Assembly (NCBI GenBank): GCA_041658985.1
Contig: JBAZZC010000001.1
Span: 1,813 to 65,812, forward strand
Direction: 5' to 3'
Length of the DNA stretch: 64,000 nucleotides
Source: Minisyncoccota bacterium
GTDB taxonomy: Bacteria > Patescibacteriota > Minisyncoccia > Phycocordibacterales > DATDWN01
Under the pieces are notes generated by a model. The model worked only from the letters and a program-made list of their open reading frames with translations. It searched no databases and had not been told where the DNA came from. The stretch's first letter is position 1. Each line of letters opens with the position of its first letter. Made by a program: the position numbers and the translations under genes. Of this stretch, positions 9,906 through 63,266 are shown in pieces.

Positions 9906-9967
9906 AAATAAACAGCGAACCGTGGAGCGAGAAGTCGCCCCACGGTGTAGTCGAAAGGTACAATGCC

Positions 9968-10654
9968 CTAGGGAGAGATGACTTCGAACGTGTCATCCCC
10001 CACACTCTTCACGTAGAGAGCGTTCGCCTCGGCTAGAAGCCGAGCGATGACCGGTGGGTGGTGAGCCATGTACACGTAACCCACTGGAGCACTCATGATG
10101 CACGAGCCAGTTCCTGGTGGTCTGTACAAACTCATGTCAATCGTCCCTTGCTGGCGAACGACTTGTAGAACCTTGTCCGCCCCGAAGCAGATTTGGTCCT
10201 GCGGGATAAGTCGTCGGCTTTCACCGACAACCGTCTCGAGAACGAAGCGCCGATGCGTCGGCCCCTCATCCTTGGGAACTGGAGTGTATCCGCAGGACAT
10301 CGCGAGCATCTCCGCGAAGTCGCCCACCTCAGACCACGACCTGAGATATGGGGCGTAGAGACATCTCCCGCCGGCATCTCGCAACCACCCAGCTGGGGTC
10401 CATTTCAACAGGGCTTTGCCACGATACGCCGCCACACGAACCCCGTTGAGACAGGGTCCATCATCAATCATCCAATCAATGAGTAGGTAGTCCCTTTCAC
10501 GAAGACCACCATTCATTATCTTGAATGAGTCAGGCTTTTCTGGACCTCTTCCAGCTCTGATTCTTTCAATCTCTTCCCTTGTAAAATGGGTCGTTTCGGG
10601 ATAAACCTTGGGTTTTTGGTTCCAGTCCCTTTTCGGCTTTGGCCATTTTCCCAT
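9968..10654 (-). CDS. GC-rich orphan protein A (unknown function)
   Basis: about 55% GC coding with AGGAGG SD 8 nt upstream of ATG at 10654; hairpin terminator 9918-9962; inserted between secY and adk. Confidence 0.6.
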   Translation of the reverse strand: MGKWPKPKRDWNQKPKVYPETTHFTREEIERIRAGRGPEKPDSFKIMNGGLRERDYLLIDWMIDDGPCLNGVRVAAYRGKALLKWTPAGWLRDAGGRCLYAPYLRSWSEVGDFAEMLAMSCGYTPVPKDEGPTHRRFVLETVVGESRRLIPQDQICFGADKVLQVVRQQGTIDMSLYRPPGTGSCIMSAPVGYVYMAHHPPVIARLLAEANALYVKSVGDDTFEVISP

Positions 10655-10759
10655 GGGTTTTCCTCCTTTCCTTGGGAATCCAATCAAAAACTACCACAAG
10701 ATGTGGCTGTATGTCAATAGATTATATTAAATTTAAAAATCAAAATATTTAAACCACTA

Positions 10760-10877
10760 AAAACTTTCAAATTTGGATGAAATTCGACGTGAGAAATTAA
10801 AAAGATGAGGAGCCTTACTTAGTGGTAAGGTGATGAATATTTTTAATTTGGGAACGAGGATTTCGCCAAATTTGGAA
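10760..10877. repeat. family-2 structured palindromic element copy a
   Basis: aaactttcaaatttgg...gagCCTTACttagtgGTAAGGtga...cgccaaatttgg; three nested helices. Confidence 0.7.
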
Positions 10878-10880
10878 GTT

Positions 10881-12152
10881 TTAATATTCCCTAATAGAAA
10901 CCTGTGCATCAATCTTCTTAATCAAATCAATAACTACAGAAACTACGATGAGAAGTGACGTTCCACCAATAGATATCGCTGTGATACCAGTAAGACCGCT
11001 CATGGCCAAAGGAAGAACAGCAATAAAACCCAAAAAGAGTGCCCCAATTAGAGTTAGCCGAGTTAATATTCTCGAGATATGGTCCGATGTTGATTTGCCA
11101 GGTCTTACCCCTGGAATAAATGCTCCGTTTTTTTGAAGATTTGTTGATATTTGGTCTGGGTCAAATGTAACGGCAGTATAAAAATAAGTAAACACAAATA
11201 CCAAAAAGAAATATGCTCCGGCATAAAACCAGCCATTCGCCAAAATATCCAACAAAAAGGTTGACACTGATTGTACTAAGGCGTTACTAGCACCCTGCAA
11301 AAATCTTAGTATCATTTGTGGAAATAGAAGTATTGAAAGGGCAAAGATAATTGGAATAACCCCCGCTTGATTTATTCTAAGTGGTAAATATGTTGATGTT
11401 CCCCCATAAACTTTATTTCCTCGAACTTGTTTTGCATAGGTTACTGGTATTGGTCTTTCCGCTTCGGTGATAATAACCACACCAACAATAACAAGAGCTG
11501 ATATGACAAGAAAGACTAAGTAAAGTGGTAATTGTGAAGCCTCAAAAGAAAAAACCAGTTGACCGATTGTTGCCGGCAAAGATGCAACAATACCAGCAAA
11601 GATGATAAGTGAGACACCATTGCCAATACCATATTCAGAAATAAGTTCACCGACCCACATCAAAAGTACCGACCCAGCTGTTATAACCAAAAGATTCGTA
11701 ACTAATTCAAGGGAAGTAAGATGGGCTAAGATTTGCTGATTTTCTAAGAGTTTTATAAAACTGAAAGCTTGAATAATAGCAAGTGGAATAGAAAGTATTC
11801 TGCTGTACTGAGCAAACTTTCGTCTACCAGCTTCTCCTTCTTCCTGATACATTTCCTTTAATTTGGGAAACATAATAGTTAGAAGTTGCATAATAATTGA
11901 TGATGTGATGTACGGACCAACACCAAGCATCACAATAGAAAGTTGGGCCAACCCACCGCCAGAGAAAAGATTGAGAAGCCCAAAGAATTCATTGCCAGCA
12001 AAAAACTGAGCTAATTTAACATGGTCAACTCCAGCAATAGGGACAGCAGCAAAAACACGAAACAAGACAAGTGCAGAAAGTGTAAAGAATATTCTTTTTC
12101 GTAATATTCTGTCTTGAAAGATAAGGGTGAATTTATTAAAAAGGTCTTTCAT
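10881..12152 (-). CDS. secY: preprotein translocase subunit SecY
   Basis: 10-TM protein with SecY signature regions; follows rplO. Confidence 0.9.
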   Translation of the reverse strand: MKDLFNKFTLIFQDRILRKRIFFTLSALVLFRVFAAVPIAGVDHVKLAQFFAGNEFFGLLNLFSGGGLAQLSIVMLGVGPYITSSIIMQLLTIMFPKLKEMYQEEGEAGRRKFAQYSRILSIPLAIIQAFSFIKLLENQQILAHLTSLELVTNLLVITAGSVLLMWVGELISEYGIGNGVSLIIFAGIVASLPATIGQLVFSFEASQLPLYLVFLVISALVIVGVVIITEAERPIPVTYAKQVRGNKVYGGTSTYLPLRINQAGVIPIIFALSILLFPQMILRFLQGASNALVQSVSTFLLDILANGWFYAGAYFFLVFVFTYFYTAVTFDPDQISTNLQKNGAFIPGVRPGKSTSDHISRILTRLTLIGALFLGFIAVLPLAMSGLTGITAISIGGTSLLIVVSVVIDLIKKIDAQVSIREY

Positions 12153-12156
12153 GGTA

Positions 12157-12594
12157 TTATTTTACCTCACCACCTGCTTTTTCGATAGCTAGTCGAGCTG
12201 AAGCTGAAACCTGACAACCTTTTACTTTTATTTTTCGGCTGAGCTGACCCCCTCCTAAAATTTTTACTCTTGGAAAAACCCCTGAAATTGTCCTGATGAT
12301 TCCTTTTTTTACCAATGTCTGTGGTGAAACAACATCACCATCTTTAAATATGCTAAGTTTTTTTAGGTTTATAACCGTGGGCTTTAGTTCAATGCTTGTG
12401 TTTATGTTTTTTCCGCGACCGCGTAATTTTGGTACCCTTTTAATAAAATCTCTAATTTCTGGTCTCTTCTTGTGACCAGCTCTAGCATTTTGTCCTTTTG
12501 TTCCACGTCCCGATGTTTTTCCACGAGTTCCCCCACGACCGACAAGGCGTGTTTTTGTATTTGGATGTTGTCTTTTTAGGTTATGTGTTTGCAT
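12157..12594 (-). CDS. rplO: 50S ribosomal protein L15
   Basis: Gly/Arg/Lys-rich N-terminus typical of L15; position before secY. Confidence 0.9.
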   Translation of the reverse strand: MQTHNLKRQHPNTKTRLVGRGGTRGKTSGRGTKGQNARAGHKKRPEIRDFIKRVPKLRGRGKNINTSIELKPTVINLKKLSIFKDGDVVSPQTLVKKGIIRTISGVFPRVKILGGGQLSRKIKVKGCQVSASARLAIEKAGGEVK

Positions 12595-12619
12595 GGTTGA
12601 TTTTTAATAACTGAAGTAG

Positions 12620-13243
12620 TTATTTTCTCGGTATTAATTGACTTAATGCTTTTACCGCTGCTTTGGCATTGTTGATTTTATTTTTGCTTCTGGAAAAGAT
12701 TTTGCTACTTACTTCTTTTATTCCAGCAAATTCCAAAACGGTTCTAACAGATGAACCGGCCAAGATTCCTTTACCAGGAGCACGCATAATAAGTACTCTT
12801 GAACTAGAATACTTGGCGCTTACTTCGTGTGGAATAGAGCCGTTTTTTGTCATATTGACTTTAATCATGTTTTTTCTGGCATCTCTAACGGCCTTATCTA
12901 TAGCCACCGGAGTATCTCCAGCTTTTCCAAGACCAACACCAACACGACCCCTTCTGTCCCCAATAACAATACCAACAGAAAAACTGAATCTTCGTCCACC
13001 AGTTACCACTCTCGTCACCCGACGAATACTTATAATCTTTTGGTCAAATTCTGGCTTAACCCGGGCTTCTCTTCTTGGAGAAGGTCTACGAGAATTTTTC
13101 CTAAATTCTTTTGGGGCCTGCGTTGAAACTACATCTTTTTGTAAGACGGTTGGTTCAATTTCTTCTTCAATTTTTATTTCTTCTGGATCCATAATATTTT
13201 TTAAACTAAAATTAAAACTGTAGTCCTCCCTTGCGAGCCCCAT
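12620..13243 (-). CDS. rpsE: 30S ribosomal protein S5 (N-terminally extended; start uncertain, alt 13192)
   Basis: S5 dsRBD and C-terminal domain motifs; directly followed by rplO with no L30 gene between. Confidence 0.85.
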
Positions 13244-13562
13244 CTGCTATCGCCTTAACACTGCCCGTATAAATAAAACCTCCTCTGTCAAACACTACTT
13301 CTTTGATTTTTTTTACCTTAGCTTTCTCTGCAATACTCTCTCCAACAAGCAAAGCTTTTTCCATCATACTTTTGCCTTTTACTTCCCGAGAATGAGCTGA
13401 TGCTAGAGTCTTTGTATTCTCATCATCAATGAGTTGGGCGGAAATGTGCTTGTTTGATTTGTAAACAGACAAACGAGGTTTTTCTTTTGTACCAGAAATC
13501 TTGGCACGAATTCTTGCGTGTCTTCTCGTTCTCTTCTCTAATTTTGCATTTAATGTTTTCAT
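13212..13562 (-). CDS. rplR: 50S ribosomal protein L18
   Basis: L18 motifs, operon position. Confidence 0.9.
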
Positions 13563-13577
13563 ATCGATATATTACCT

Positions 13578-13703
13578 AAACTTTCAAATTTGACCTAGGT
13601 CGCGTATAAAATTTGAAAAATAATGGGAGCCTACCTGAGTGCGTAGGTGACCATTATTTTTCAGATTTTAGACGATGAGATTGGTCATAATTTGTAAGTT
13701 TAG
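13578..13703. repeat. family-2 structured palindromic element copy b
   Basis: aaactttcaaatttg...gaaaaataatgg gagCCTACctgagtgcGTAGGtga ccattatttttc... Confidence 0.7.
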
Positions 13704-14233
13704 GCTGTCTTCTTACCTTGTTTACGCTTAACTACTTCGCCTTCATATCTCATCCCCTTGCCTTTATATGGCTCTGGCTTCTTTAGGGACCTAACTTTTG
13801 CTACAAACTCCCCAACAACCTCCTTATCAATGCCCGTTGTTGTAATAATGTTTTTCTCTGCTGTAACTTTCAGAGTGTTTGGAATCGGAACAATAACTGG
13901 GTGAGAAAAACCAAGGGCTAAAACCAGGGTCTCTCCTTTGACTTCCGATTTATACCCAATACCCTCAAGTATTAATTTCTTGACGTATGGGGTTGTGACA
14001 CCAGCTATCATATTCATGATGTGCGATGCATATGTTCCCCATAATGCTCGTGTTTCTAGTGTTTCAACCTTGGGAACAAGTGTAACTTTATTATCGGCGA
14101 TAGTAACATTAATATCGTCCTTGAAAATCTTTGTAAGTGTTCCAAGTGGGCCTTTAACAGTCAAAATTCCTCCCGAAAGTGAGACTTCAGTTGTTTTTGG
14201 TATTTCTATTATTTTTTTTCCGATTCTACTCAT
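13700..14233 (-). CDS. rplF: 50S ribosomal protein L6
   Basis: MSRIGKKIIEIP start; L6 two-domain pattern. Confidence 0.9.
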   Translation of the reverse strand: MSRIGKKIIEIPKTTEVSLSGGILTVKGPLGTLTKIFKDDINVTIADNKVTLVPKVETLETRALWGTYASHIMNMIAGVTTPYVKKLILEGIGYKSEVKGETLVLALGFSHPVIVPIPNTLKVTAEKNIITTTGIDKEVVGEFVAKVRSLKKPEPYKGKGMRYEGEVVKRKQGKKTA

Positions 14234-14248
14234 GTTATTTTGTGTTTG

Positions 14249-14371
14249 AAAAACTTTCAAATTTGGCCAAGGTCGAGGCAAAACTGGAAACAGAGTCCGA
14301 GCCGTACAATAGTACGGTGAGGATTATGTTTTCAGTTTTAACGAAGAGATTGGTCATAATTTGAATGTTTT
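14249..14371. repeat. family-2 structured palindromic element copy c
   Basis: aaactttcaaatttgg...gagCCGTACaataGTACGGtga...gagattggtcataatttg. Confidence 0.7.
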
Positions 14372-14758
14372 TTACCAGATTTTAAATAGTGCTTCACCTC
14401 CAACTCCTGCCTCTTTCGCCATCTTATCTGTCATAATTCCTTTTGGTGTTGAAAGAATAAGAGCGCCCATACCACCTTTAACCTTATTAATTTCTTTTGA
14501 TTTTTGATAAATTCTTTTTGATGTTTTTGAAACTCTTTCTATGCCATGAATTTTTGGACCGTTTTCATCATAAACAAAAACTACTTCAATAAACTTTGCT
14601 ATTTTCTTTCCTTTCTTTCCAAATGATTTTAGATAACCATCTTTAAAAAGAACATCACTAATTGCAAGTTTTAATTTTGAATATGGAAAAACAACAGATT
14701 CTTTTTTTGATTCTGTCGCATTCTTTATTCTAACTATCATATCTGATATTGGATCCAT
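14372..14758 (-). CDS. rpsH: 30S ribosomal protein S8
   Basis: S8 motifs, operon position. Confidence 0.9.
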   Translation of the reverse strand: MDPISDMIVRIKNATESKKESVVFPYSKLKLAISDVLFKDGYLKSFGKKGKKIAKFIEVVFVYDENGPKIHGIERVSKTSKRIYQKSKEINKVKGGMGALILSTPKGIMTDKMAKEAGVGGEALFKIW

Positions 14759-14815
14759 TTTGTTTATTATATTTTGGTGGTATCTCTGTGAGACCTACCA
14801 AAGATGTTATTTTAA

Positions 14816-15001
14816 TTACCACGAAGATTTCTTGATACCTGGAATCTTTCCTTCATTAGCTAATTCCCTGAAACAAATTCGGCAGAGACCAAAATCTCTC
14901 ATAAAAGCATGACCTCGCCCGCATTTGAAACATCGATTTGTAGCCCGAGTACTGAATTTCGGTTTTTTGAGAGCTCTTGCCTTTGTTGATGTTTTAGCCA
15001 T
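14816..15001 (-). CDS. rpsZ: 30S ribosomal protein S14 type Z (zinc-binding)
   Basis: 61 aa with CxxC...CxxC. Confidence 0.9.
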
Positions 15002-15068
15002 TTTTTAAATAAAATGAGCTTTAAAGCTCGGGTCTATACTATCAGGGATAAATCGCACTGTCAATTAA

Positions 15069-15674
15069 CTACTTTTTAATATTCCAACCCTTCTTTTTTG
15101 CCTTTGGAGCCTCCTTTTTGACTTCTGGGCCCCCAACCCCTGCCTTTCTGAATGGAAAACCTAGATGCTTTAGAAAAGCCAGTGTTTGCTTACCATCTTT
15201 AACTTTTGTGACAATTGTTACTGCCAAACCAAATACATCCTTCAAATCCTCATCTGATGATTCTGGAAATATGGTGTTCTCTCGAATGCCTAGAGTATAA
15301 TTACCCATTTCGTCTACTCCTGTGGTTGGAATACCACGGAAGTCTTTTGTTCTTGGAAGGGCAATATTTACCAGTCTGTCTAGGAAATCATACATCCTCT
15401 CTCCTCGAAGGGTTACTTGCATACCAACCGTATCCCCCTCTCGTACCTTAAATGCAGCGACTGACAGTTTTGCTCCCTTTCTAGCTGGTAATTGTCCTGT
15501 GATTTTTGCTAATCTGTCCGCAACAAGCTCAATTTTCTTTTTATCCTTCATTGAACCAACACCACTAGAAATAACCACCTTCTGAATTCTCGGCGCTTGC
15601 ATAGGATTTGTATATCCAAATTCGTCTTTTAGAGCTCTATAACCAGATTTTACTTTTTCTTTAATTGTTTGCAT
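15069..15674 (-). CDS. rplE: 50S ribosomal protein L5 (Lys-rich C-terminal extension)
   Basis: MQTIKEKVK...GYTNPMQAPRIQKVVISSGVG. Confidence 0.9.
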   Translation of the reverse strand: MQTIKEKVKSGYRALKDEFGYTNPMQAPRIQKVVISSGVGSMKDKKKIELVADRLAKITGQLPARKGAKLSVAAFKVREGDTVGMQVTLRGERMYDFLDRLVNIALPRTKDFRGIPTTGVDEMGNYTLGIRENTIFPESSDEDLKDVFGLAVTIVTKVKDGKQTLAFLKHLGFPFRKAGVGGPEVKKEAPKAKKKGWNIKK

Positions 15675-15829
15675 GATAGTTGAATTACTAATTGCTCTAA
15701 TTTCTAATTGACCTAAATAATGACAAAATACCAAATCCCAATAGATTCATTCCGTTGTTCTTTTTTAATTGGTTCTTATTCATTGGGTTTTATTTAGGAA
15801 TTAGGTCAATTAGGAATTAGAAATTATCT

Positions 15830-16054
15830 TTATTTCTTTTCTACCTTTTTAACATTTGAAACGTGAATTGGCATGGTCTTGTCTATAATCTGTCCTTTCT
15901 CACCACTCTTTCTTGCTTTCTGATGAACCTTCAAAACATTAACTCCAGAAACAATAACTTTATTTTCACTTGGTATTGATTTAGTAACGGTACCAGTTTT
16001 ACCTTTATCTTTTCCAGTTAACACTATTACTTTGTCGTCCTTCTTGATGTGCAT
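15830..16054 (-). CDS. rplX: 50S ribosomal protein L24
   Basis: KOW motif KDDKVIVLTGKDKGKTG. Confidence 0.85.
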   Translation of the reverse strand: MHIKKDDKVIVLTGKDKGKTGTVTKSIPSENKVIVSGVNVLKVHQKARKSGEKGQIIDKTMPIHVSNVKKVEKK

Positions 16055-16068
16055 GTTTGTAAAATAAT

Positions 16069-16446
16069 TTATACAACCTCTGGTGCTAATGAAATAATTT
16101 TCTGATATCCAACTTCACCAATTTCTCTTGGAATTGGTCCGAATATGCGTCCAGCGATTGGTTCTAGCTTTTTCTTATCTTTTATCACAAGAACAACTGC
16201 ATTTTCATCAAATCTAATGTATGAACCGTCTTTTCGTCTAAAAGGTGCCTTCTGTCTTACCACAATAGCTCGATGCACATCTTTCTTTTTTGTTGTTTTT
16301 CGAGGCTCTGCTTTCTGTACTGAAATAATAACCAGCTCACCGATGCTTGCATATCTCTTTTTTGAACTACCTAATACCTTAAACACTCTTCCGATTTTTC
16401 CACCAGAGTTATCAGCTATTTTAACGATTGAACGTGGTTGAATCAT
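16069..16446 (-). CDS. rplN: 50S ribosomal protein L14
   Basis: MIQPRSIVKIADNSGGK. Confidence 0.9.
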   Translation of the reverse strand: MIQPRSIVKIADNSGGKIGRVFKVLGSSKKRYASIGELVIISVQKAEPRKTTKKKDVHRAIVVRQKAPFRRKDGSYIRFDENAVVLVIKDKKKLEPIAGRIFGPIPREIGEVGYQKIISLAPEVV

Positions 16447-16525
16447 ATGTTTAGTTTATAAAGTTTGTAAAGTTTGTAAAGTTGAATTCATCTAATTTTT
16501 TGTTTTCTTTATGGACTTTATAACT

Positions 16526-16792
16526 TTATGAACTTTCGACTATTCTAAAGTGTTTATCCTTTGAAATTGGCGCGCATTCAATAATAGTAACCCTGTCCCC
16601 CACCTTCTTTGTATTTCCTTTGTCATCTGCTTTAAACTTTTTGTCGTGGGACACATATTTACCATATTTGGGATGTTTTACAAAACGAGAAACTTTTACA
16701 ACAATCGTGTCCTTCATTTTGTCAGATGTAACAATTCCAACCAAAGTTTTCTTGAGTGATTGTTTTGTTAGGTTTTCGGTTGTTTTTTTCAT
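16526..16792 (-). CDS. rpsQ: 30S ribosomal protein S17
   Basis: S17 OB-fold motif GIVTSDKMKDTIVVKV. Confidence 0.9.
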   Translation of the reverse strand: MKKTTENLTKQSLKKTLVGIVTSDKMKDTIVVKVSRFVKHPKYGKYVSHDKKFKADDKGNTKKVGDRVTIIECAPISKDKHFRIVESS

Positions 16793-16796
16793 GTTT

Positions 16797-16982
16797 TTAT
16801 TTTACAGATTTATTGTTCAAAATTGTCAAAATCCGAGCGATATCTTTTTTGAGTGAATTTCCTTCTTTAACATTTCTGACATTACTTCCAGAAACAGCAA
16901 AACGGAAATTACGCAAAGCCAACCTTTTCTCAGAAAGAAGTGTTTTAAGTTCTACTGGTGTTTTCTTAATAAAATCTTTCAT
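16797..16982 (-). CDS. rpmC: 50S ribosomal protein L29
   Basis: 61 aa helical, ELKTLLSEKRLALRNFRF. Confidence 0.85.
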   Translation of the reverse strand: MKDFIKKTPVELKTLLSEKRLALRNFRFAVSGSNVRNVKEGNSLKKDIARILTILNNKSVK

Positions 16983-16983
16983 A

Positions 16984-17400
16984 TTATTTTGAAATTATTT
17001 TGGTTTTAAGGGGAAGTTTTGTACCAGCTTTTCTCAAAGCTTCTTTAGCCACAGCGTCTGTAACCCCATCAACCTCAAAGATTATTCGTCCTGGTTTAAC
17101 AGGGGCACAATATCCAAACAAATCCCCTTTTCCTTTTCCAAGTTTTACTTCAGCTGGCTTTTTTGTTAACGGCATATCGGGAAAAATACGAATCCAAATC
17201 CTACCAGTCTTTCCAACTGCTCTAGATAGTGCCTTTCTTGCTGCCTCTATCTGATTAGACATAACACGAGCTCCACTTAGGGCCTTCAGAGCATGAGAGC
17301 CAAAAGAAATAGTCGTACCACGAGTACTGACACCCACTTTTTCAGCGTTTTTTCGCATTGTTTGCCATTTTCTGTATTTAACTTTTTTTGGTAGCAACAT
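16984..17400 (-). CDS. rplP: 50S ribosomal protein L16
   Basis: MLLPKKVKYRKWQ. Confidence 0.9.
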   Translation of the reverse strand: MLLPKKVKYRKWQTMRKNAEKVGVSTRGTTISFGSHALKALSGARVMSNQIEAARKALSRAVGKTGRIWIRIFPDMPLTKKPAEVKLGKGKGDLFGYCAPVKPGRIIFEVDGVTDAVAKEALRKAGTKLPLKTKIISK

Positions 17401-17409
17401 GGTAGTATT

Positions 17410-18069
17410 TTATTTTTTAGCAAAAATCTCCCCTCTATAAATCCAAACTTTTATACCAATTCCACCATAAGGTAGCCGGGCTTCATGTTTAGCAAAGTCT
17501 ACATCTGCTCTGAAAGTTTGAAGTGGAATTCGTCCTCTCTTTATTTTTTCCTGACGAGCCATTGATGCCCCGCCGAGTCGTCCCGATAGTTCTATTTTTA
17601 CTCCCAAGACATCTCGATTGGCCATAACTTTTTCAACCATTTGTTTTGTAACTCGTCGAAAAGGCAATCTCTTTTCTAGTCCATCGGCAATCATTTGGCT
17701 AACTATGGTAGCATTTGATTCTGGTGATTTTACTTCTTTTATATCTACCCTAACCTCACCCCCAGAAGAAAGTTTTTTGTTTGATAAAAATTTTAAAATG
17801 TCATTCTTTAATTTGACCGCACCGTCTCCTGACCTGCCAATAATCATTCCAGGTCTTGATGTTTCAATAATAATTCGAAGAACTTTTTCTCCCCTTTCCA
17901 TTTCTATATTACTCACATACATACCACGAAGCTTTTTCTCTAAATAAACACGAAGCAAGACATCACTTTTTAGAAACTCTTTGTATTTATTTTTTACCCC
18001 AAACCATCGAGATTTCCAGTCTCTTATGATTCCTAGTCTATGTGAATATGGGTGAACTACGTGGGTCAT
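17410..18069 (-). CDS. rpsC: 30S ribosomal protein S3
   Basis: KH domain and S3 C-terminal motifs. Confidence 0.9.
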   Translation of the reverse strand: MTHVVHPYSHRLGIIRDWKSRWFGVKNKYKEFLKSDVLLRVYLEKKLRGMYVSNIEMERGEKVLRIIIETSRPGMIIGRSGDGAVKLKNDILKFLSNKKLSSGGEVRVDIKEVKSPESNATIVSQMIADGLEKRLPFRRVTKQMVEKVMANRDVLGVKIELSGRLGGASMARQEKIKRGRIPLQTFRADVDFAKHEARLPYGGIGIKVWIYRGEIFAKK

Positions 18070-18118
18070 GATAATTAGTTAAAAGTCTTTAAAGTTCATA
18101 AAGTCTATAAAGTTAATC

Positions 18119-18544
18119 CTACTTTTTGGCACCAACTTTTTTGGTCTTTATTTTTATTGGTAATTTTTCAATTTTTACAACCTCCTTTACGACTTTTGAC
18201 TTTCGACTTTCGACTGGAGTCGATAATTCGACGAACACAGCACATGTTCTTTTTCGCATTGGATGAGCAGAACCACGGGCGGCAGGAAGTCTTCTGTATA
18301 ATATTTTTCCGCTATCTACTTTTATCACTTTTACAATTAAATTTTCAGTTGGAATATTTTGGGTCTTGGCGTTAGCCAGAGCTGACAGAATAAGTTTTTT
18401 TATTGGAAGAGAAGACTTCTTTGCAATAAAATCTAGGTTTACCAAAACATCTGATACCTTTTTACCTCTTACAGCATTCGCAACCATTCGCATTTTACGA
18501 GGAGCTTGTCTGAAATCAGATAATGTCGCAGTTGCTGTTGCCAT
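18119..18544 (-). CDS. rplV: 50S ribosomal protein L22 (Lys-rich C-terminal extension encoded by GACTTT repeats)
   Basis: L22 motifs; position. Confidence 0.85.
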   Translation of the reverse strand: MATATATLSDFRQAPRKMRMVANAVRGKKVSDVLVNLDFIAKKSSLPIKKLILSALANAKTQNIPTENLIVKVIKVDSGKILYRRLPAARGSAHPMRKRTCAVFVELSTPVESRKSKVVKEVVKIEKLPIKIKTKKVGAKK

Positions 18545-18549
18545 AATGA

Positions 18550-18894
18550 TTATTTTTTAGTTTCACCGACGGTGGCCTTGGCTGCTTGAGCAGAAGCAAT
18601 CTCGCTTTCCTTTTGTTTTTGTTCCATTTCTTTCTGCATTTTACCTCCGTGTCTTATAAATTTCTTTGTAGGAGAAAACTCACCTAATCTGTGTCCAACC
18701 ATATCCTCATTAACTAAGACATCAATATGGGTCTTGCCATTATGAACACCAAACGTAAAACCAACCATTTCAGGGGCGATGACACAGGCTCTTGACCAAG
18801 TCTTAATAACCCCAGTTTCAGTGGATTTTTTACCCTCGATTTTCTTTAGAACTCGCGGGTCAACGTATAGGCCTTTCTTGCTTGATCTTGTCAT
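18550..18894 (-). CDS. rpsS: 30S ribosomal protein S19 (C-terminally extended)
   Basis: [20 protein letters not shown]. Confidence 0.9.
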
Positions 18895-18924
18895 ATTTTA
18901 ATTTGTTCAAAACAAAAACCACAT

Positions 18925-18953
18925 TGTTAGTGGTATTGACGCTTAACTTCATA
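18925..18953 (-). promoter_or_regulatory. sigma70-type promoter (TTGACT-17-TAGTAT) reading into rpsS
   Basis: near-consensus hexamers 17 bp apart on minus strand just downstream of GC-rich gene B hairpin; coordinates approximate. Confidence 0.4.
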
Positions 18954-19103
18954 CCGCAAACAAAATTGTAAGTAGAGGTAATGGCTCTGACTTGGCGTTT
19001 ATACTATACAAATCAAGGAAATAAGTCAACAGGCTTACAGGTAAGTTAAAGGGCGAGCCCGGCCGTTGCCGAGTCCGCCCTCTTTGGACGAGCTCCCACC
19101 CAC

Positions 19104-19628
19104 CTACTGCGGGAGCTGGAGCCCCTTCACCTTGGCCGGATCGAGCTTGCTGCCACCCTTCGGGAAGATAACCCCAGCGCCGAGGAAGGGCATGGTGAAC
19201 ATGATCCTTCCATCACCAATGTCCTGCGGGGAAACCTCCGTGGGGTTGATGTAGAACGGGAAGATCTGCCACTTTTCCCATTCCGATCCCGGAACCAGCC
19301 GAGCGACCCACGGGGACTCGAAGAAGATCAGGCCATCACGAAGTTCGATCTTCGAGATCGGCCCTCGGTAGTACGTCCCATCCTCTTGAGTTTCGAGGTC
19401 GCCTCCGACGATGTCATCCCTCCGTAACACGTCTTCCCAGGTCATGTGAACCTCCCATCTGGCAAAATTGCCACCAGACAACACCTTACATCTTTTTACA
19501 AAAGTGTCAACGTCTTTGCTTGGTAAAAAATATCTTCGAGAAACATCCGCAGGCGCTGAGCTTGGTGTTGTCATAGACCCCGAGCTTTGCGAGGGGCTCT
19601 TGACAACGAAGCGCCGAGGACCGAACAA
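19104..19628 (-). CDS. GC-rich orphan protein B (unknown function; probable true start 19445 with GGAGG SD)
   Basis: GC-rich open frame between rplB and rpsS; GC hairpin 19050-19085 downstream; N-terminal 60 codons are AT-rich and bracketed by 26-bp inverted repeats. Confidence 0.5.
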   Translation of the reverse strand: MFGPRRFVVKSPSQSSGSMTTPSSAPADVSRRYFLPSKDVDTFVKRCKVLSGGNFARWEVHMTWEDVLRRDDIVGGDLETQEDGTYYRGPISKIELRDGLIFFESPWVARLVPGSEWEKWQIFPFYINPTEVSPQDIGDGRIMFTMPFLGAGVIFPKGGSKLDPAKVKGLQLPQ

Positions 19629-19685
19629 GGCTTCCGCAGGAGAAGCCTTGTGTTTTCGAGAAGATATTATTTACCAAGCAAAAAC

Positions 19686-20528
19686 TTACTTCCTCTTGCC
19701 CACCTTCCTTCGTGAAACAATTAATCTGTTCGAGTATTTCTTTGGAGTTCTAGACTTCTGACCCTTTCCTGTTGGCTTACCATATACAGAGATTGCTCTC
19801 TTTCTCCCTCTACCTTGTCTGCCCTCTCCACCTCCGTATGGGTGGTCAACTGGGTTTTGAGCTGTACCACGAACTGTAGGACGAATACCAAGCCATCGTG
19901 AGCGACCAGCCTTTCCAAGGTTTGCTAACCTATTTTCATTATTTGAAACCTCACCAATACTTGCATAGGCAGTCTCCTTCACTTTTCGGACCTCAGATGA
20001 AGGCATCTTCAAGTCAACCATCCCAGCGTCTTTGGCTATAACTTCAATATAATTTCCGGCAGAACGAGCCAGTTTTGCTCCTCCTTGTGGCTTTACTTCA
20101 ACATTATATACAAATGTTCCAATAACTATGTTTTTTAAAGGAAGTCTATTACCAGGCTTTTGTTCAACATTCTCTCCAGTGACACAGATATCACCAACTT
20201 TTACTGATTTAGGAAGTAAAACATATCTCTTTTCACCGTCCTTGTATTGAGCCAAACCAATAAAACCAGCCCGGTTTGGGTCATATTCTACGGTTTTGAT
20301 TGTATAAGGAACGTCCATCTTGTCATATCTAAAATCAACCTCTCGAAAAAGTTTCTTATGACCACCACCTTTGTGACGAGTTGTAATCTTGCCGTGATGG
20401 TTTCTTCCAACTGACCGCTTAAAACCGCTTGTTAAAGATTTGAAAGGTTTACCGGTTGTCAAAAAATCACCGTAGGAAACAGTTGTGTGTTGGCGTTGGG
20501 ATTTAGATGTCGGCTTGTATGATTTCAT
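19686..20528 (-). CDS. rplB: 50S ribosomal protein L2
   Basis: L2 motifs GRNHHGKITTRHKGGGHKK. Confidence 0.95.
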   Translation of the reverse strand: MKSYKPTSKSQRQHTTVSYGDFLTTGKPFKSLTSGFKRSVGRNHHGKITTRHKGGGHKKLFREVDFRYDKMDVPYTIKTVEYDPNRAGFIGLAQYKDGEKRYVLLPKSVKVGDICVTGENVEQKPGNRLPLKNIVIGTFVYNVEVKPQGGAKLARSAGNYIEVIAKDAGMVDLKMPSSEVRKVKETAYASIGEVSNNENRLANLGKAGRSRWLGIRPTVRGTAQNPVDHPYGGGEGRQGRGRKRAISVYGKPTGKGQKSRTPKKYSNRLIVSRRKVGKRK

Positions 20529-20559
20529 AAATTTGAATTTTCTTTATAACTTTCAACTT

Positions 20560-20838
20560 TTAACTTTCTAACTTCTGGCCTTTGGCCAGGTATATGTAAG
20601 CCTTTTTGTATCCTGATTTTGTACCCCTCTTGCCTCGTACAACCACATTTTTTGCTGGTATTGTAACTGTGTTTATTCTGATTGGGGTTATTTTGTATTT
20701 TTCAACAAAAGCTTTCTTAACATCATTAGATGTTGACTTTGGGTCTACTTCGTAAACATAGACCGAAGATTCAGCAGACATCGTAGCCTTTTCTGTAACA
20801 TGAGGTCGTATTAAAATATGGTTTAGGTCTTTCTTCAT
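20560..20838 (-). CDS. rplW: 50S ribosomal protein L23
   Basis: 92 aa, L23 pattern, position. Confidence 0.85.
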   Translation of the reverse strand: MKKDLNHILIRPHVTEKATMSAESSVYVYEVDPKSTSNDVKKAFVEKYKITPIRINTVTIPAKNVVVRGKRGTKSGYKKAYIYLAKGQKLES

Positions 20839-20843
20839 TTTAT

Positions 20844-21593
20844 TTACTTGCCCTGCGTAGCTTTACGCGAAGCGGGGGTTAATTTTTCAGTAATTTGTGG
20901 CAGACCTTTGTCTGGATTTGAAATAACGACATATTTGTATTTCATTAAATCAATTGGGTTTATATTGCGTATTTCATCAACAACTAAATTACCAAAATTT
21001 CTAAAACTTTTTTCTGTTGTTGTATCTTTCTCTGATAAAGCAATGTAGGCTGAATTTTTCTTTTTACTTAGTAAGTCCTTGTAACCATCTATTTTTGAGA
21101 GAGATGAGAGAACATTTTTTGCTTCGTTTGTTTTTATGGCTCGCATTCCTAAATCATCAACAAACAAAACCTGACCGTCTCTATATTTTGCAGAAAGTAT
21201 CATATATAGGGCCTTTGCTTTCATTTTCTTGTTTACTTTTTTATCAAAAATTTTGTCATTTCTTGGCCCATGAGTCACGCCTCCACCAACCCATATAGGT
21301 GAACGAGTTGAGCCGTGCCTTGCGCGACCAGTTCCTTTTTGTTGCCACGGCTTCTTGCCTCCTCCCCTAACATCTCCCCGATTTTTTGTGTGGGCTACAT
21401 TAGTTCTTGCACTTGATTCCATAGAAACAACAACTTGGTGAACCAAGTCAGCATTCCAAGGTAAAGCAAAAACTGATTCTGGTAGAGAAATCTTTCCAGC
21501 TTCTTTACCCTTCTGATTATAAACAGTAGCTTCCAAAGCAACAGGTGTGTCTGTTTTTATTTTAGTTTTTTTTGTTGTTTTAGATGTTTCCAT
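20844..21593 (-). CDS. rplD: 50S ribosomal protein L4
   Basis: L4 motifs, position. Confidence 0.9.
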   Translation of the reverse strand: METSKTTKKTKIKTDTPVALEATVYNQKGKEAGKISLPESVFALPWNADLVHQVVVSMESSARTNVAHTKNRGDVRGGGKKPWQQKGTGRARHGSTRSPIWVGGGVTHGPRNDKIFDKKVNKKMKAKALYMILSAKYRDGQVLFVDDLGMRAIKTNEAKNVLSSLSKIDGYKDLLSKKKNSAYIALSEKDTTTEKSFRNFGNLVVDEIRNINPIDLMKYKYVVISNPDKGLPQITEKLTPASRKATQGK

Positions 21594-21631
21594 GATTTTT
21601 CTTTATAGACTTTACAAACTTTATGGACTTT

Positions 21632-22246
21632 TTACTTTCCTATTACTTCTACTAGTGTTCCTCTGCGACCAGCGACTGTTCCTCGTATAAAAATTTCTCC
21701 AGTTTCTGGTTTTACACTAACAATTGTTAAATTCTTAGTTGTGATTCTGTCTCCACCCGTTCTGCCGGCCATTCTTTTGCCCTTTGCTACACGACCACCA
21801 TCACGACCAGCACCACCGATAGAACCCGGCTCTCTTTCTGAATGTTTTTGCCCGTGTGAACGAGGACCTCCGTGGAATCCATGTCTTTTCACCACACCCT
21901 GAAAACCTTTTCCTTTTGATATGCTAGAAATGATAACCTCGTCCCCCTCTACAAATGTTGAGAGGTCAATTGTGTCTCCGACTTTCATTGCTGGGTCGCC
22001 GTCTGTTGTAAACTCTCGCAAATATCTAAAATTGCCACTTCCCATGTGGCCTTTTTCTGGTTTATTAATATTTTTTTCCGCTTTTTCGCCAAAACCAACT
22101 TGGATAGCATTATAACCATCTGTGGCAACAGTTTTAATTTGTGTGACAACCATTGGACCTGCTTTCAAAACAGTCACTGGATGTACCAGACCCTTATCAT
22201 CAAAAATTTGGGTCATATTGATTTTTGTTCCCAATATGAACTTCAT
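21632..22246 (-). CDS. rplC: 50S ribosomal protein L3
   Basis: L3 motifs FxxGxxVDVTGxSKGKGFQG. Confidence 0.9.
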   Translation of the reverse strand: MKFILGTKINMTQIFDDKGLVHPVTVLKAGPMVVTQIKTVATDGYNAIQVGFGEKAEKNINKPEKGHMGSGNFRYLREFTTDGDPAMKVGDTIDLSTFVEGDEVIISSISKGKGFQGVVKRHGFHGGPRSHGQKHSEREPGSIGGAGRDGGRVAKGKRMAGRTGGDRITTKNLTIVSVKPETGEIFIRGTVAGRRGTLVEVIGK

Positions 22247-22470
22247 ATTTTTATTTTATATTTGGAGACGTTTTGCGGACAGTAATGAGAAAAGGTTTTC
22301 CTCAACATTGCCCTTCGCTAGCCCCCATGAAAAAGTCGCTTAAAGCGATTTGGCTATGGTAACAGATATCAATTTTTTAATCAAGTCGCTCTGGCCTTTT
22401 TGTTTAATATTTTATACAGAAAGGACCTCACGACGAGCGGGGGCCGAGAGGCCCTTCCTTTGTCGTGAGG

Positions 22471-22746
22471 TCACTGGTTGTCGAACTCCGTCGACTCGCG
22501 ACCCAAACCAAGTTGAACAGTCTCGGCGCAGGCCGACAACCTCTCAACCTGGAATCCAGTGTCAATCAACACTAAGATCTTGGTGATTTCAGCTGCCGGA
22601 ACACCTGTTCTCTCAGCGAATCCGTCAATATCCTTCGTGACGGCTTGCATGAGACCAGGGGTCTGCCGAAACAATTGCTTCAGCAGTTTGTAGCTTACTA
22701 TAGTTGAGTCCATCGATATCTCCCTCCAAAACAAATGGTATCCCAA
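22471..22746 (-). CDS. GC-rich orphan protein C1 (91 aa, unknown)
   Basis: GC-rich ORF with GGAGGGA SD; terminator-like hairpin module 22405-22465 immediately downstream. Confidence 0.5.
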   Translation of the reverse strand: MGYHLFWREISMDSTIVSYKLLKQLFRQTPGLMQAVTKDIDGFAERTGVPAAEITKILVLIDTGFQVERLSACAETVQLGLGRESTEFDNQ

Positions 22747-22879
22747 ATTATATAAATGTCAACGTAAACAAAAAACCGCTAAGATTAAGGGTGACTTATT
22801 ATACAGAAAAGACCTCGCGACAGACGAGAGGCGCAAGGCCCTTCCGTTGTGCGAGGTCGTGTGTCAGCGAGTGGAGAAG

Positions 22880-23344
22880 CTACTTCTGCAACACTCCAGC
22901 GACATAAACTCTCGGGGGTGGCCAGCCACCCTTTGTACATCGTGTGATGATTAGCTTGTCGAAGTGCCCACCATTCGGGCCATCAACAAACTCCACCCAC
23001 CCCTGGCAGAACATGGCTGTTGTCGGTTCGTACAACTGCACCTTCGCCCCTGACTTGGAAAGGTCGGCGAAGGCATTGAGTCTGAAATCGTCCTTGTCGA
23101 CTTCACTTCCTTGCCGGTGAGGAATCGCCTTATTCAGACGATCCCTCAGCTCGTTCTCGACCCTCGTCACCTCAGCGCGACGCTGGTTTTGCCGCTCGAT
23201 GGCCCCCTTTTTCAAATGAGACAACGACATGGTCCCGACCAACAGCAAAATACCCACAATCACGTAGGAGAGAAACGTACACGAAGCTTTTCCGAACATA
23301 CCCCCTCCAATCCAGATGGTCAGTACTTGACCATACCCTTTCAT
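22880..23344 (-). CDS. GC-rich orphan membrane-anchored protein C2 (start 23344 or 23299)
   Basis: GC-rich ORF with N-terminal TM helix; TTGACA-17-TATAAT promoter ends right at the upstream ATG; paralogous hairpin module 22800-22860 downstream. Confidence 0.5.
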   Translation of the reverse strand: MKGYGQVLTIWIGGGMFGKASCTFLSYVIVGILLLVGTMSLSHLKKGAIERQNQRRAEVTRVENELRDRLNKAIPHRQGSEVDKDDFRLNAFADLSKSGAKVQLYEPTTAMFCQGWVEFVDGPNGGHFDKLIITRCTKGGWPPPRVYVAGVLQK

Positions 23345-24004: not shown

Positions 24005-24007
24005 CTG

Positions 24008-49787: not shown

Positions 49788-50450
49788 CTAGGCCACCACG
49801 GGGGCGGTCAGTTGCGGGAAGACGAAGCGATGACGATCCTCGCCGTCCCAGACGTGGTCGAGCGACAGCCGGTGGGCGCGGACGTGGAGACCAAAGGGGC
49901 AGACGCGCACGCTCGCAACGAAGAACTCGTTGTCCTTCTTCACGAGGAAGAAGGTTCCGTAGCCATCCATTCTCAACCAGTCCTGGTGGGTCTCGCAGAA
50001 TGAGATGACCTGACCCTGGGTCATGACCAGATTGTCCAGAGGGACGCCGACATTGGCGTAAATGTCAACGAACTTGCCATTGCGGACGAGCTCGTGAACT
50101 TCCACGTCCGTGTTGGGGGTTGCCACTCCTTCCACGTCGAGACCGTAGTTGACGAAGTCGGGGTCGATGTAACCCCGAAACACCGTCTTGGCCTTGGCGA
50201 TAGTCCGCTTGCCCTTGCAGGCAGAGATGGTCAAAGTCTCCCCGCCCGAGACGAGACGGAGGTAGAAAGCGGACTTCTTGGTCGGCTTCACCACCTTCGG
50301 CATGATGTCGGCGTCGCCGTCGAGGTATGCCTTGATCATCCGAAGACGACCACCCGACCCAATGAGATTTACTTGTTCGGGGGTTAAGCCATCCTCTTCA
50401 AATCTGTCCGACAACCACTTCATCTGGTCAATCGTGTAGAGTAAGGACAT
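49788..50450 (-). CDS. GC-rich orphan protein D (unknown function)
   Basis: GC-rich ORF; AGAAAGGG SD then ATG at 50450; consensus promoter 50599-50627 and structured leader upstream. Confidence 0.6.
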   Translation of the reverse strand: MSLLYTIDQMKWLSDRFEEDGLTPEQVNLIGSGGRLRMIKAYLDGDADIMPKVVKPTKKSAFYLRLVSGGETLTISACKGKRTIAKAKTVFRGYIDPDFVNYGLDVEGVATPNTDVEVHELVRNGKFVDIYANVGVPLDNLVMTQGQVISFCETHQDWLRMDGYGTFFLVKKDNEFFVASVRVCPFGLHVRAHRLSLDHVWDGEDRHRFVFPQLTAPVVA

Positions 50451-50598
50451 CGTCCTACCCTTTCTGGCACATCGTGCCAATGCTGGCTCAGCGGGATGCT
50501 TTGCCACAGCAGAAAAGGTCATTGTTTTAGGGCACTTTCTGCTATGGCAAATCTTATTTTTGACTCTATAACACTTTTAAAGAACTGCTTAACTTATT

Positions 50599-51249: not shown

Positions 51250-51906
51250 TCAAGGAGAACCGAGACCCCAGCCCTTAGAACTTACTTGCGGACGCCAGCG
51301 AACCACCAGTAGGCGTCCCAGGCGTAGTCGTGGCGGTTTGACGTGCACGCGGCGCCCGCCGTGCCAACGGCGGAACGTGGCGAAACACCACTTGCCGTTC
51401 TCATCCTTCCAGTGCGTACCGTGAAGATGTGTGTCGGCGAAGGTGGGGTCCGCCTCGTTGACAGCAGCGACGGAGTACGGATCAGCGGGCTTGAGACCCG
51501 CAAACTCGTACTCCTTCTCCAAATCGTCGTCACTGATGACGCCGTTTTTGTAGGCCTCCGGACGAGGCTTGAAGAAAACGACCTCCGTCGGTCCGCCCGT
51601 ACCTTTCGGCATGGTCGCGACGACGCCGGCGTCAACGTACTGTTTCCGGCCCGTCGCCTTGAGCGTCGCTTCCGGAGTGCGCGTGTTGTCCACGTCGACC
51701 AGTCGAATGATGAGGTTGGCCAACGATTCGACCAGCTCGCGGAACACCGCGAACATCCTCATGCCGAGATTGTCCACCCCCAGCGCCTGCTGGGCGCCAT
51801 CCTTCGGAGTTTCCGCCTGATGCTTGCGCATGGCAGCACGGAGTTGGTCCACAACCGTGTCAATCTGTCCGTCGGTCATCGGAGATGCGGTCATGGTCTG
51901 TGCCAT
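51250..51906 (-). CDS. GC-rich orphan protein E (unknown function; 3' end/frame uncertain)
   Basis: GC-rich ORF with AAAGGA SD; promoter 52027-52055; hairpin terminator about 51200-51232 followed by family-1 element. Confidence 0.55.
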   Translation of the reverse strand: MAQTMTASPMTDGQIDTVVDQLRAAMRKHQAETPKDGAQQALGVDNLGMRMFAVFRELVESLANLIIRLVDVDNTRTPEATLKATGRKQYVDAGVVATMPKGTGGPTEVVFFKPRPEAYKNGVISDDDLEKEYEFAGLKPADPYSVAAVNEADPTFADTHLHGTHWKDENGKWCFATFRRWHGGRRVHVKPPRLRLGRLLVVRWRPQVSSKGWGLGSP

Positions 51907-60800: not shown

Positions 60801-61259
60801 TTGGAAGAGATATTCCTTGCACTTAACCACAAGGGGGTGTCTGTGTTGTCTTGTTCTTTGCGTCCGACAACCCGATTGCGGGTAATACAATCACTCAAGC
60901 TTCTGGGTGGAATCACAAGCTCCATCTTCCCCGAAGTGGAAGCGGCTCTCCTTGGTAACCTCGATTATCAGAGAGCAATCGAGTTCATGATCCCCAACAA
61001 GACGATGGGGTGGTACAGATCAACGATGGACCTGTTGTTCTGTGAACTCCACCCGAAATACCGCGCGTCATGTCGCACGTACTATGTCAACAAGGGTCCG
61101 ATGCTGAAGGACCTCATCACGGTGGATGAGTGGGTAGAGTACAACAGTCGCCTACTCAAAGCCCTAGAGGTTGCCCACGATCTGTTCTGCGAACAGCGCC
61201 AGATGTGGTGGGGCTGGTATCGTCGGCGAGTGGAGAGAGCATTTCGGGCAACCGCCTGA
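60801..61259 (+). CDS. GC-elevated ORF of unknown function (alternatively a structured RNA; start uncertain)
   Basis: open frame with TTG/ATG candidates; terminator hairpin 61285-61320; see findings. Confidence 0.3.
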   Translation: MEEIFLALNHKGVSVLSCSLRPTTRLRVIQSLKLLGGITSSIFPEVEAALLGNLDYQRAIEFMIPNKTMGWYRSTMDLLFCELHPKYRASCRTYYVNKGPMLKDLITVDEWVEYNSRLLKALEVAHDLFCEQRQMWWGWYRRRVERAFRATA

Positions 61260-62495: not shown

Positions 62496-63266
62496 TTAAG
62501 ACTTCGGTATCTCACGTTCCCTCCATGGATGAATGATTGGGAGCGACTTTTTGCGCCTCAATCCGAGCAAATGGTCCGTTCTAGCATCAGCTGCCTGAAG
62601 GAAGATTGCGTTCGGATAAAGGAGCTCAAGGGCCTCCCCGATGAGAGCGTAGTCGGCAAGTCGCTTACGCGACGAGGGCTCAAGTTCTGCGCGACGGGTA
62701 TACCTGAACTTGGGAATGCTCAGGCGATACCGAATGTCGGCGTCCAAGGCCAGAGATTGCTTCGACTCCCCGGCCCACCTGAGTGCACTTTCGTACGAGA
62801 TACACCCGGCGGTGACCGCCTTCGGCTCAATGTCGGACCAGAAAAGAATATCGCCTGGAGGTGCTTTTCCTTCCTCCCTGGCAATTTCAATCTGAAGCCA
62901 CGCCTCTTCCCGAAGCTCGGATTGCGGTTGGAACCACCCCCACGTCCTGACCCATTCCAAATCCTGGACAAAGAGCGTGAGGGTGACTTCTTTTCCCAGG
63001 TTTTGGAGGCGCTCAATCAACCCCTCGGTTTTTTGCCGAACACTCCGACTGAAAAACCCGACCGAGGCCACATTGAGGTCTCGTCCATCTTCGGTTCCCG
63101 TTGCACAGGAAATACCGACAAGATGGACGGTGGGGGTATTTAGAGCTTCGCACAGCTCCGGAACCGAAACGATATTTTCAGTCTCGGTTTCCTCAAGAAG
63201 AGCAAAGGTGCTCGCCTCAACCCCTCGAAGCTTAGAGACTGCCTGTCTCGCATCCCGGTTAGCCAT
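62496..63266 (-). CDS. GC-rich orphan protein (256 aa, unknown)
   Basis: GC-rich ORF with AGGAGA SD; promoter TTGACA-18-TACTAT near 63500-63530 and about 230-nt structured leader. Confidence 0.5.
   Translation of the reverse strand: MANRDARQAVSKLRGVEASTFALLEETETENIVSVPELCEALNTPTVHLVGISCATGTEDGRDLNVASVGFFSRSVRQKTEGLIERLQNLGKEVTLTLFVQDLEWVRTWGWFQPQSELREEAWLQIEIAREEGKAPPGDILFWSDIEPKAVTAGCISYESALRWAGESKQSLALDADIRYRLSIPKFRYTRRAELEPSSRKRLADYALIGEALELLYPNAIFLQAADARTDHLLGLRRKKSLPIIHPWREREIPKS

Follow-up and report, generated by a model that had tools for sequence, protein, structure and literature searches.

GC-rich genes between core genes of the S10-spc ribosomal cluster in Candidatus Paceibacterota: accessory units at putative exchange hotspots

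Small extra genes lodged between conserved neighbours have been described in several systems. Phage morons are single extra genes of deviant composition, each with its own sigma-70-type promoter and intrinsic terminator, placed between conserved genes. Integron gene cassettes are small units of unknown function, mostly with a single open reading frame (ORF), that collect at one fixed site, with an imperfect palindrome after each. Lineage-specific genes are found in the spc region itself (secY-adk-map), and at the integration hotspots (genomic islets) of Escherichia coli a conserved flanking pair holds differing accessory content of varied cargo, with exchange thought to use homologous recombination in the flanks (PMC2617782). 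Here we analyse a 64-kb stretch of DNA (the window) from a bacterium of the Candidate Phyla Radiation (CPR), in which four GC-rich ORFs, named A, B, C1 and C2, stand between core genes of the S10-spc ribosomal superoperon. The gene order of this cluster is treated as near-immovable, and it commonly serves as an anchor in the phylogeny and binning of CPR genomes. We favour, as moderately probable, the reading that these genes occupy accessory-gene hotspots at pre-existing inter-operon gaps and are exchanged by homologous recombination, with no special cassette machine.

The GC content of the window is 38.7%, and its ordinary genes have a GC content at third codon positions (GC3) of 0.15-0.36, with a mean of about 0.28 for the ribosomal genes. 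A first-pass annotation of this DNA had pointed to four ORFs of about 55% GC between core ribosomal genes, and our measurements bear this out (GC 0.50-0.55, GC3 0.57-0.76). All four lie on the minus strand, which is the operon strand: A (9968-10654; GC 0.54, GC3 from 0.57 as listed to 0.585 for the ORF with an ATG start) at the secY-adk junction, B (19104-19628; GC 0.55, GC3 0.66, or 0.76 for the likely 113-aa gene) at rplB-rpsS, and C1 (22471-22746; GC 0.50, GC3 0.60) together with C2 (22880-23344; GC 0.53, GC3 0.64, range 0.64-0.66) at rpsJ-rplC. The compositional anomaly is mainly one of synonymous codon choice. The proteins had been described as rich in Arg, Gly and Pro, but the amino-acid shift is only mild: glycine, alanine, arginine and proline together make up 22-33% of the GC-rich proteins and 21-31% of the host proteins. 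Each of the four genes has, as had been proposed, its own Shine-Dalgarno (SD) sequence, a GC hairpin terminator and host-like signals, the promoter of B being weak; the SD motifs of all four are of the GGAGG type, and their hairpins are followed by U-rich tails.

The window matches a contig of about 149 kb in a metagenome-assembled genome (MAG) of Candidatus Paceibacterota, a CPR group (GCA_041664695.1). Chimeric assembly had been raised as a concern in the first-pass annotation, and a MAG as source makes it, or contamination from a GC-rich organism, a fair question. Contigs of 137-149 kb in NCBI (two MAGs), JGI, ENA and Logan encode proteins identical to those of the window, as does a 2.9-kb contig of another run for ribosomal protein L2, B and the start of S19. 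Because independent assemblies and another sample show the same arrangement, it is not a chimera. Orthologous arrangements also exist in other species, and the GC boundaries coincide with gene signals; chimeric assembly is no serious explanation, and we regard its probability as negligible.

For comparison, 80 loci of related species were fetched via L2, and all intergenic gaps from tuf to adk were measured. Loci of related genomes are referred to by L-numbers and the window genome as WIN; the closest relative is L001/L002 (L2 98% identical), and L121 is 91% identical in L2. Across these loci only five junctions expand repeatedly, namely tuf-rpsJ, rpsJ-rplC, rplB-rpsS, rplE-rpsN and secY-adk. 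Their lengths range from less than 50 nt to 9.7 kb, the latter at rplB-rpsS, and the remaining junctions are tight, save for one 489-nt rpsC-rplP gap. The same flanking genes thus hold differing content, which is the pattern of an integration hotspot between core genes. In the AT-rich hosts we counted 112 junction ORFs of at least 80 aa, of which 79% are co-directional; the median GC3 excess is +0.105, and 44% exceed +0.15. Among the GC-elevated junction examples, 28 of 36 have no Pfam match, and the rest carry kinase, YkuD, receiver, DksA-type or transporter domains.

Promoter-like sites are present in the window at rpsJ-rplC, rplB-rpsS, rplE-rpsN and secY-adk, and one more lies upstream of tuf. 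The TTGACA-17-TA(G)TAT promoter type precedes rpsN and tuf too, and in relatives that lack B a terminator and such a promoter are still found between rplB and rpsS. With promoter-like sites at four junctions, the ribosomal superoperon here appears, from its sequence, to be already split into separately promoted blocks. The four ORFs would then be CPR-restricted accessory genes, each a self-contained transcription unit in a gap between promoted blocks. Since the gaps already hold a terminator and a promoter, an extra unit could be added, lost or swapped without breaking an operon. Gap content does turn over among related Paceibacteria. In the first-pass annotation it had been reasoned that related genomes with the same genes at the same sites and at native GC content would make the composition ordinary for the lineage; relatives do carry the same genes at the same sites, but their GC content is still anomalous.

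We judge the ORFs, on sequence comparisons and structural models, to be real protein-coding genes, because pN (the proportion of nonsynonymous differences) is far below pS (synonymous) for A, the ratio of nonsynonymous to synonymous substitution rates (dN/dS) is low for B and C2, and A and B fold confidently. For A and its L076 orthologue pN is 0.23 and pS is 0.76 (saturated), while dN/dS is 0.22 for B compared with L121 and 0.16 for C2 compared with L002. The AlphaFold2 (AF2) model of A has a mean predicted local distance difference test (pLDDT) score of 90.7, with no meaningful match in the PDB, and that of B, a small beta-barrel, has a pLDDT of 97, with no significant fold match; the predicted isoelectric point of A is 8.8. 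The rival idea that the GC-rich stretches are structured RNAs, with the ORFs a mere by-product of the few stop codons in GC-rich DNA, draws on the fact that RNA genes often account for GC-rich islands where the genome is AT-rich, and on the several overlapping ORFs in the region of A. It is nevertheless extremely improbable. The codon-position pattern GC1 > GC2 < GC3 in the ORFs of A, B, C1 and C2 fits coding sequence, an Rfam search of the GC-rich stretches returned no family, whether the gathering score or E<=1 was applied, a tRNA search gave nothing relevant, and protein-level homologues exist with dN well below dS. C1 alone is without homologues or a confident model, and its coding status is judged from composition.

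The GC-rich proteins have no match in Pfam, PHROGs, PADLOC or NCBIfam, and by PADLOC, Pfam and NCBIfam they resemble no known anti-phage defence or toxin-antitoxin family. The genes had been called orphans of no recognisable family; this stands for the curated libraries, but A and B do have uncurated families. A word-indexed homologue search returned only self matches for A and C2, whose relatives were later found by tblastn on the fetched loci and by full HMMER scans. Within the window, all-against-all BLAST and tblastn indicate that the GC-rich proteins are not mutual paralogues. Our literature searches turned up no account of GC-rich genes within the ribosomal clusters of CPR genomes. These searches bear on the possibility that the inserts are phage morons or prophage remnants, with which they share the whole architecture of own promoter, terminator and deviant composition. 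We consider this very improbable, since no protein has a PHROG match, the B family has no relatives in IMG/VR, A is unmatched in phage genomes and B in plasmids, and no phage genes adjoin the inserts, whose flanks are ribosomal genes.

Gene B is most likely translated from the ATG at 19445, as in the NCBI annotation, which gives a 113-aa protein (19104..19445) preceded by the SD GGGAGG; the ORF listed to 19628 would run, in its 5' part, through a 174-nt hairpin element with 32-nt arms (19512..19685, minus strand) directly 3' of the rplB stop. This hairpin is near-perfect (fold -83 kcal/mol, z = -8.3), occurs as a single copy in the window and is absent from the relatives. The promoter-like site of B is weak, and its GC hairpin terminator (19051..19083, minus strand) is common to the L121 orthologue. 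B belongs to a CPR-wide family, modelled as a small beta-barrel, with at least 74 homologous clusters of 38-78% identity, named as Uhrbacteria, Liptonbacteria, Parcubacteria and Minisyncoccia. It is found at the same junction with the same terminator in L121 and is absent from rplB-rpsS of two closer relatives, L001 and L076, where the gap holds only the rplB terminator and a TTGACA-17-TATAGTAT promoter with its leader; elsewhere in CPR the setting of the family is unrelated, and its neighbours are often other small genes that lack annotation. Between WIN and L121, the synonymous substitution rate (dS) is 1.62 for rplB, 0.50 for B and 0.72 for rpsS. B would be a later arrival, from a family that moves around CPR genomes. 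The TTGACT-17-TAGTAT promoter downstream of it (19001..19029, minus strand), which had been taken for a fresh promoter that restarts transcription into rpsS, is indeed present; because it is conserved in five relatives without B, it is the native rpsS promoter, outside the insert and no part of a cassette. A conserved 5' leader precedes rpsS at 18895-19000, with a hairpin (ACCACTAACAATGTGGT) and a T-run that look attenuator-like, and another precedes rplC at 22247-22400. Both are common to the relatives and without an Rfam match, and they are possibly undescribed ribosomal-protein leaders.

At rpsJ-rplC, the promoter of C2 (23345..23373, minus strand) had been read as TTGACA-17-TATAAT and matches all 12 of 12 promoter positions, with an upstream TG; it is conserved in L002. 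Because its -10 element abuts the ATG at 23344, to which the ORF is listed, we place the translation start of C2 at the ATG at 23299, which would probably give a gene of 139 aa (22880..23299) with an SD GGAGG and an N-terminal membrane helix. A terminator-like hairpin element 3' of C2 (22811..22858, minus strand) is near-identical in L002. The same site in L002 holds a C2 counterpart of 39-40% identity, which is just as GC-rich (GC3 0.65 in both alleles), and the promoter, the upstream rpsJ terminator and the downstream hairpin element are common to WIN and L001/L002. The dS of C2 is saturated in the comparison with L002, against 0.5-0.9 in the flanking genes. C2 would be an old occupant of this junction, with an allele far more divergent than its flanks. 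C1 (80 aa, 22471..22713) has no homologue that we could find and is absent from the closest relative. It follows a promoter-like site TTGACA-16-TACCAT (22735..22762, minus strand) and is bracketed by two copies of the C2 hairpin element, the second lying 3' of it (22422..22475, minus strand; z = -5.7); the stem differences between the copies are compensatory. C1 would be a later arrival. The recent acquisition claimed for the GC-rich genes would fit B and C1, and is doubtful for C2, of which gene, promoter and terminator are common to L002.

For A, recent acquisition does not hold. This 228-aa protein belongs to a small CPR family of about 30 representative homologues or clusters in a full HMMER scan, and each of the other five genomes in which it turned up (L017, L076, L091, L092/L093 and L094) has it, as here, between secY and adk. 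In the window it follows an AAGGAGG SD and a promoter-like site, TTGACA-18-TAGTTT (10688..10717, minus strand), which was read from the sequence, is missed by a consensus scan and resembles the host TTGACA-17-TAGTAT type. Its GC hairpin terminator (9920..9945, minus strand) has a fold of -25 kcal/mol (z = -3.9) and a U-rich tail. The relatives of A have a GC content of 0.49-0.54 and a GC3 of 0.47-0.58, against 0.18-0.35 in the flanking genes, and the GC3 excess is +0.2 to +0.3. Identity to the window drops in step with that of SecY (A/SecY: 62/91, 51/85, 36/80, 32/79 and 36/78%), and other lineages with a SecY identity of about 80% lack A. Between WIN and L076, dS is 0.82 for secY and saturated for A. 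On these comparisons A would be an old, fast-evolving occupant of the secY-adk junction. The residents of the gaps would accordingly differ in age, with A and C2 old and B and C1 later.

The flanking genes carry signs of recombination of their own. In the comparison of WIN with L001, dS along 15830-22246 ranges from 0.09 (rpsS) to 2.56 (rplP), about 30-fold between neighbouring ribosomal genes, with a sharp drop exactly at rplB-rpsS. From the discordant dS of inserts and flanks and from this mosaic, both observed on the MAG contigs compared, we infer that diverged lineages exchange segments by homologous recombination, the breakpoints lying in the gaps. The most likely route would be DNA uptake followed by homologous recombination, with the highly conserved ribosomal genes and the conserved promoter and terminator modules as homology arms. 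The window holds uptake genes (ComEC and a type IV pilus), and Saccharibacteria, another CPR group, have been shown to be naturally competent (PMC10633639).

The modular build of these units had led to the proposal of a dedicated cassette-insertion process, integron-like or element-borne, which would move an ORF together with its promoter, terminator and a palindromic element. Part of this stands: the units are autonomous and carry one gene each, and their gain, loss and replacement are real. Moreover, two copies of the terminator element surround C1, duplicated terminator-promoter modules accompany two further GC-rich genes, D and E (see below), the families of B and of a further gene, I, are found at different sites in different genomes, and palindromic elements lie directly 5' of A and E in the window and of the counterparts that C2 and B have in L002 and L121. 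Two palindromic families are concerned. In the first, of about 120 nt, the outer arms are AACTTYCAAATTTGG and the inner hairpin is GAGCCT..AGGTGA; this family is conserved beyond the present species within the clade, and recurs right 3' of stop codons at the ends of transcription units; one copy (10762-10880) lies directly 3' of the secY stop, others are at 13579-13690, 14252-14365, 23914-24009, 25230-25440, 29091-29178, 44885-45011, 50639-50699 and 52076-52274, and relatives carry it at L002:420-545 and L121:745-865. It could be a module for termination or insulation, or a REP (repetitive extragenic palindromic)- or MITE (miniature inverted-repeat transposable element)-like repeat. The second, of about 145 nt, has 33-nt arms (TTTATCCGCACACYAAC..GGCATCG) around an AT-rich core. 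Its seven window copies, all intergenic, are at 7330-7476, 9760-9908 (between A and adk, arms TTTATCCGCACAC...GGCATCG), 31985-32080, 38148-38292, 51048-51196, 58313-58455 and 59159-59301, and Rfam gave only meaningless hairpin matches for the copy next to A. Both families also occur at junctions without an insert, a point against the palindrome as part of a cassette.

No dedicated machinery was seen either. The four inserts have neither a common end sequence nor a shared att-like site, the borders of B and C1 show no visible target duplication, and neither of these two units as a whole is enclosed by repeats in the manner of a MITE or REP vehicle. No integrase was found among the larger window ORFs scanned, in a scan that was not exhaustive, and the sole transposase has unrelated ends. 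The hairpins 3' of A, B and C1/C2 are mutually unrelated, with only the C1 and C2 copies matching each other. A is fixed at a single site, and integron cassettes lack the promoters that these units have. Taken together, a dedicated insertion process is distinctly unlikely. The C1/C2 terminator element and the inverted repeat next to B were also considered as a shared insertion signature and rejected, both being local only.

Accessory DNA is usually AT-richer than its host, and the GC excess seen here runs against this rule. A and C2 keep a high GC3 although their synonymous sites are saturated, so that the excess is no foreign signature in decay; a high GC content persists in this gene pool and is not the mark of one recent import. 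In some AT-rich hosts B copies are at host GC (0.37), indicating that high GC is not needed for B function. On several GC-rich CPR contigs (0.51-0.59) B-family genes of 0.54-0.64 GC lie at or near host composition, with copies of 0.54-0.60 being within 0.03 of their host, which makes these lineages plausible donors. We infer that GC may be kept high by repeated re-import from GC-richer Paceibacteria, by GC-biased repair at the hotspots, or by both; such import, such repair and gene-specific selection are all candidate causes.

A different account is that these are native, vertically inherited lineage-specific genes, A being an unrecognised member of spc, in which selection on the gene or mRNA (structure, stability or slow decoding) maintains the GC content. 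The presence of A at secY-adk in all six genomes, with its GC3 excess kept despite saturation and its identity tracking that of SecY, speaks for it, as does the equal GC3 of the two C2 alleles. Yet the B family works at host-like GC in several AT-rich hosts, the dS values of A, C2 and B all disagree with those of their flanks, the distribution of A is patchy where SecY identity is about 80%, and we know of no specific selective agent. We hold this account to be rather unlikely, if the least so of the alternatives considered.

Exchange by homologous recombination at the gaps also has points against it. A is GC-rich in all six genomes and looks vertical, a pattern that is hard to explain by re-import alone. 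A recombination event was nowhere directly observed, and the dS mosaic may partly reflect strain-mixed MAG assemblies. The gains and losses are unpolarised, and competence of the Paceibacteria is predicted from gene content. Finally, the composition boundaries are very sharp, and the ends of the flanking genes are only slightly GC-enriched, which argues against simple biased gene conversion; the GC3 gradient into the flanking genes is weak and inconsistent. It is still tempting to speculate that in naturally competent Paceibacteria the inter-operon gaps are recombination hotspots at which a GC-favouring process (biased conversion or recombination-tied repair) keeps a circulating set of fast-evolving, CPR-only genes GC-rich at equilibrium within AT-rich genomes, and that A is a long-term rider of spc with a new fold, possibly acting with the ribosome or translocon. 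As a whole this is an unlikely proposal, more so than native inheritance. If true, it would give an unusually clear-cut example, in bacteria, of GC enrichment driven by recombination, and the locus offers a concrete place for testing GC-biased repair against selection in bacteria.

The same GC-rich class recurs in the window, as had been claimed for D, E, 21-287 and 62496-63266; the short ORF at 37047-37238, listed with them, is unconvincing, and 60801-61259 is a further member. D (49788..50522, minus strand; GC 0.58, GC3 0.75; 220 aa from the NCBI start) and E (51250..51906, minus strand; GC 0.615) both lie between pilB and pilC, with a terminator-promoter module duplicated between them. The C-terminus of E looks frameshifted: at 51250-51400, near the 3' end, the other frame ends in HDYAWDAYWWFAGVRK followed by a stop. 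At 50700-50760, upstream of the D promoter, a copy of a 3' end like that of E has decayed and shifted towards AT, suggesting tandem duplication and cassette decay. Gene I (60801..61259, plus strand) is 40 kb away from the ribosomal cluster, whereas its homologue in L010 lies just upstream of rpsJ; gene J (62496..63266, minus strand) is of the same class. The segment 35553-35892 does not look like a gene. It has a GC content of 0.52, lies between a TTGACA promoter and the rpsL start, is built of repeats that resemble GGCGTCTGGCG/TTGCGACA, and has the look of a leader or RNA that is not translated.

Type IV pilus genes occupy 46805-54027, with D and E among them. ComEC is split into two genes within 37245-40343, a metallo-beta-lactamase part and a Competence-domain part, and a small plus-strand ORF (38282-38914) sits between the two. 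The only transposase gene in the window is an AT-rich IS200-like Y1 transposase gene at 43014-43667 (Pfam Y1_Tnp, E = 1.8e-7), and within 42989-43688 this gene has the identical 16-mer ACGGAGGCGTTGCCTC on either side. It was considered as the source of the palindromic repeats and rejected, its flanking hairpins being unrelated to these repeats; nor is the transposase gene related to the GC-rich genes. In addition, 9-nt tandem repeats of the form (G/A)ACTTTAT(G/A)(G/A), in runs of three or four and in either orientation, fill short intergenic spacers, with 26 matches against 3.4 expected by chance; runs are found at 8338-8372, 16457-16539, 18079-18114, 21599-21634, 35072-35107, 36610-36672 and 54036-54097.

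Our findings suggest that the S10-spc cluster of one CPR clade is composed of separately promoted blocks, with the cuts between them as gene-exchange hotspots. This bears on how streamlined episymbionts may gain new genes, and the mosaic synonymous divergence matters for concatenated ribosomal-protein trees built from such MAGs. The analysis also defines two protein families, A and B, which are predicted to fold well and have no known fold relative. Compared with the systems described at the outset, the units share with integron cassettes their small size, mostly single ORF of unknown function, gathering at a place and following palindrome, and differ in having their own promoters (A, C1 and C2; weak for B) and in occupying several sites; their palindromes are ordinary terminators that are not shared, and no integrase or attI was seen. 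The likeness to morons extends to every element of moron architecture; here, however, the genes are chromosomal and lie in a ribosomal cluster, and no phage homologues were found. Like other lineage-specific spc genes, A is fixed between secY and adk across a clade, and it differs from them in its lack of a known family or fold, its fast evolution, its patchiness and its deviant composition. The E. coli hotspots (PMC2617782) come closest, with their conserved flanking pairs, varied content and presumed recombination in the flanks. Neither tRNA nor integrase is involved here; the hotspots of this clade lie inside the ribosomal protein gene cluster itself, and the inserts are mostly single genes, each with its own promoter and terminator, and GC-richer than their host.

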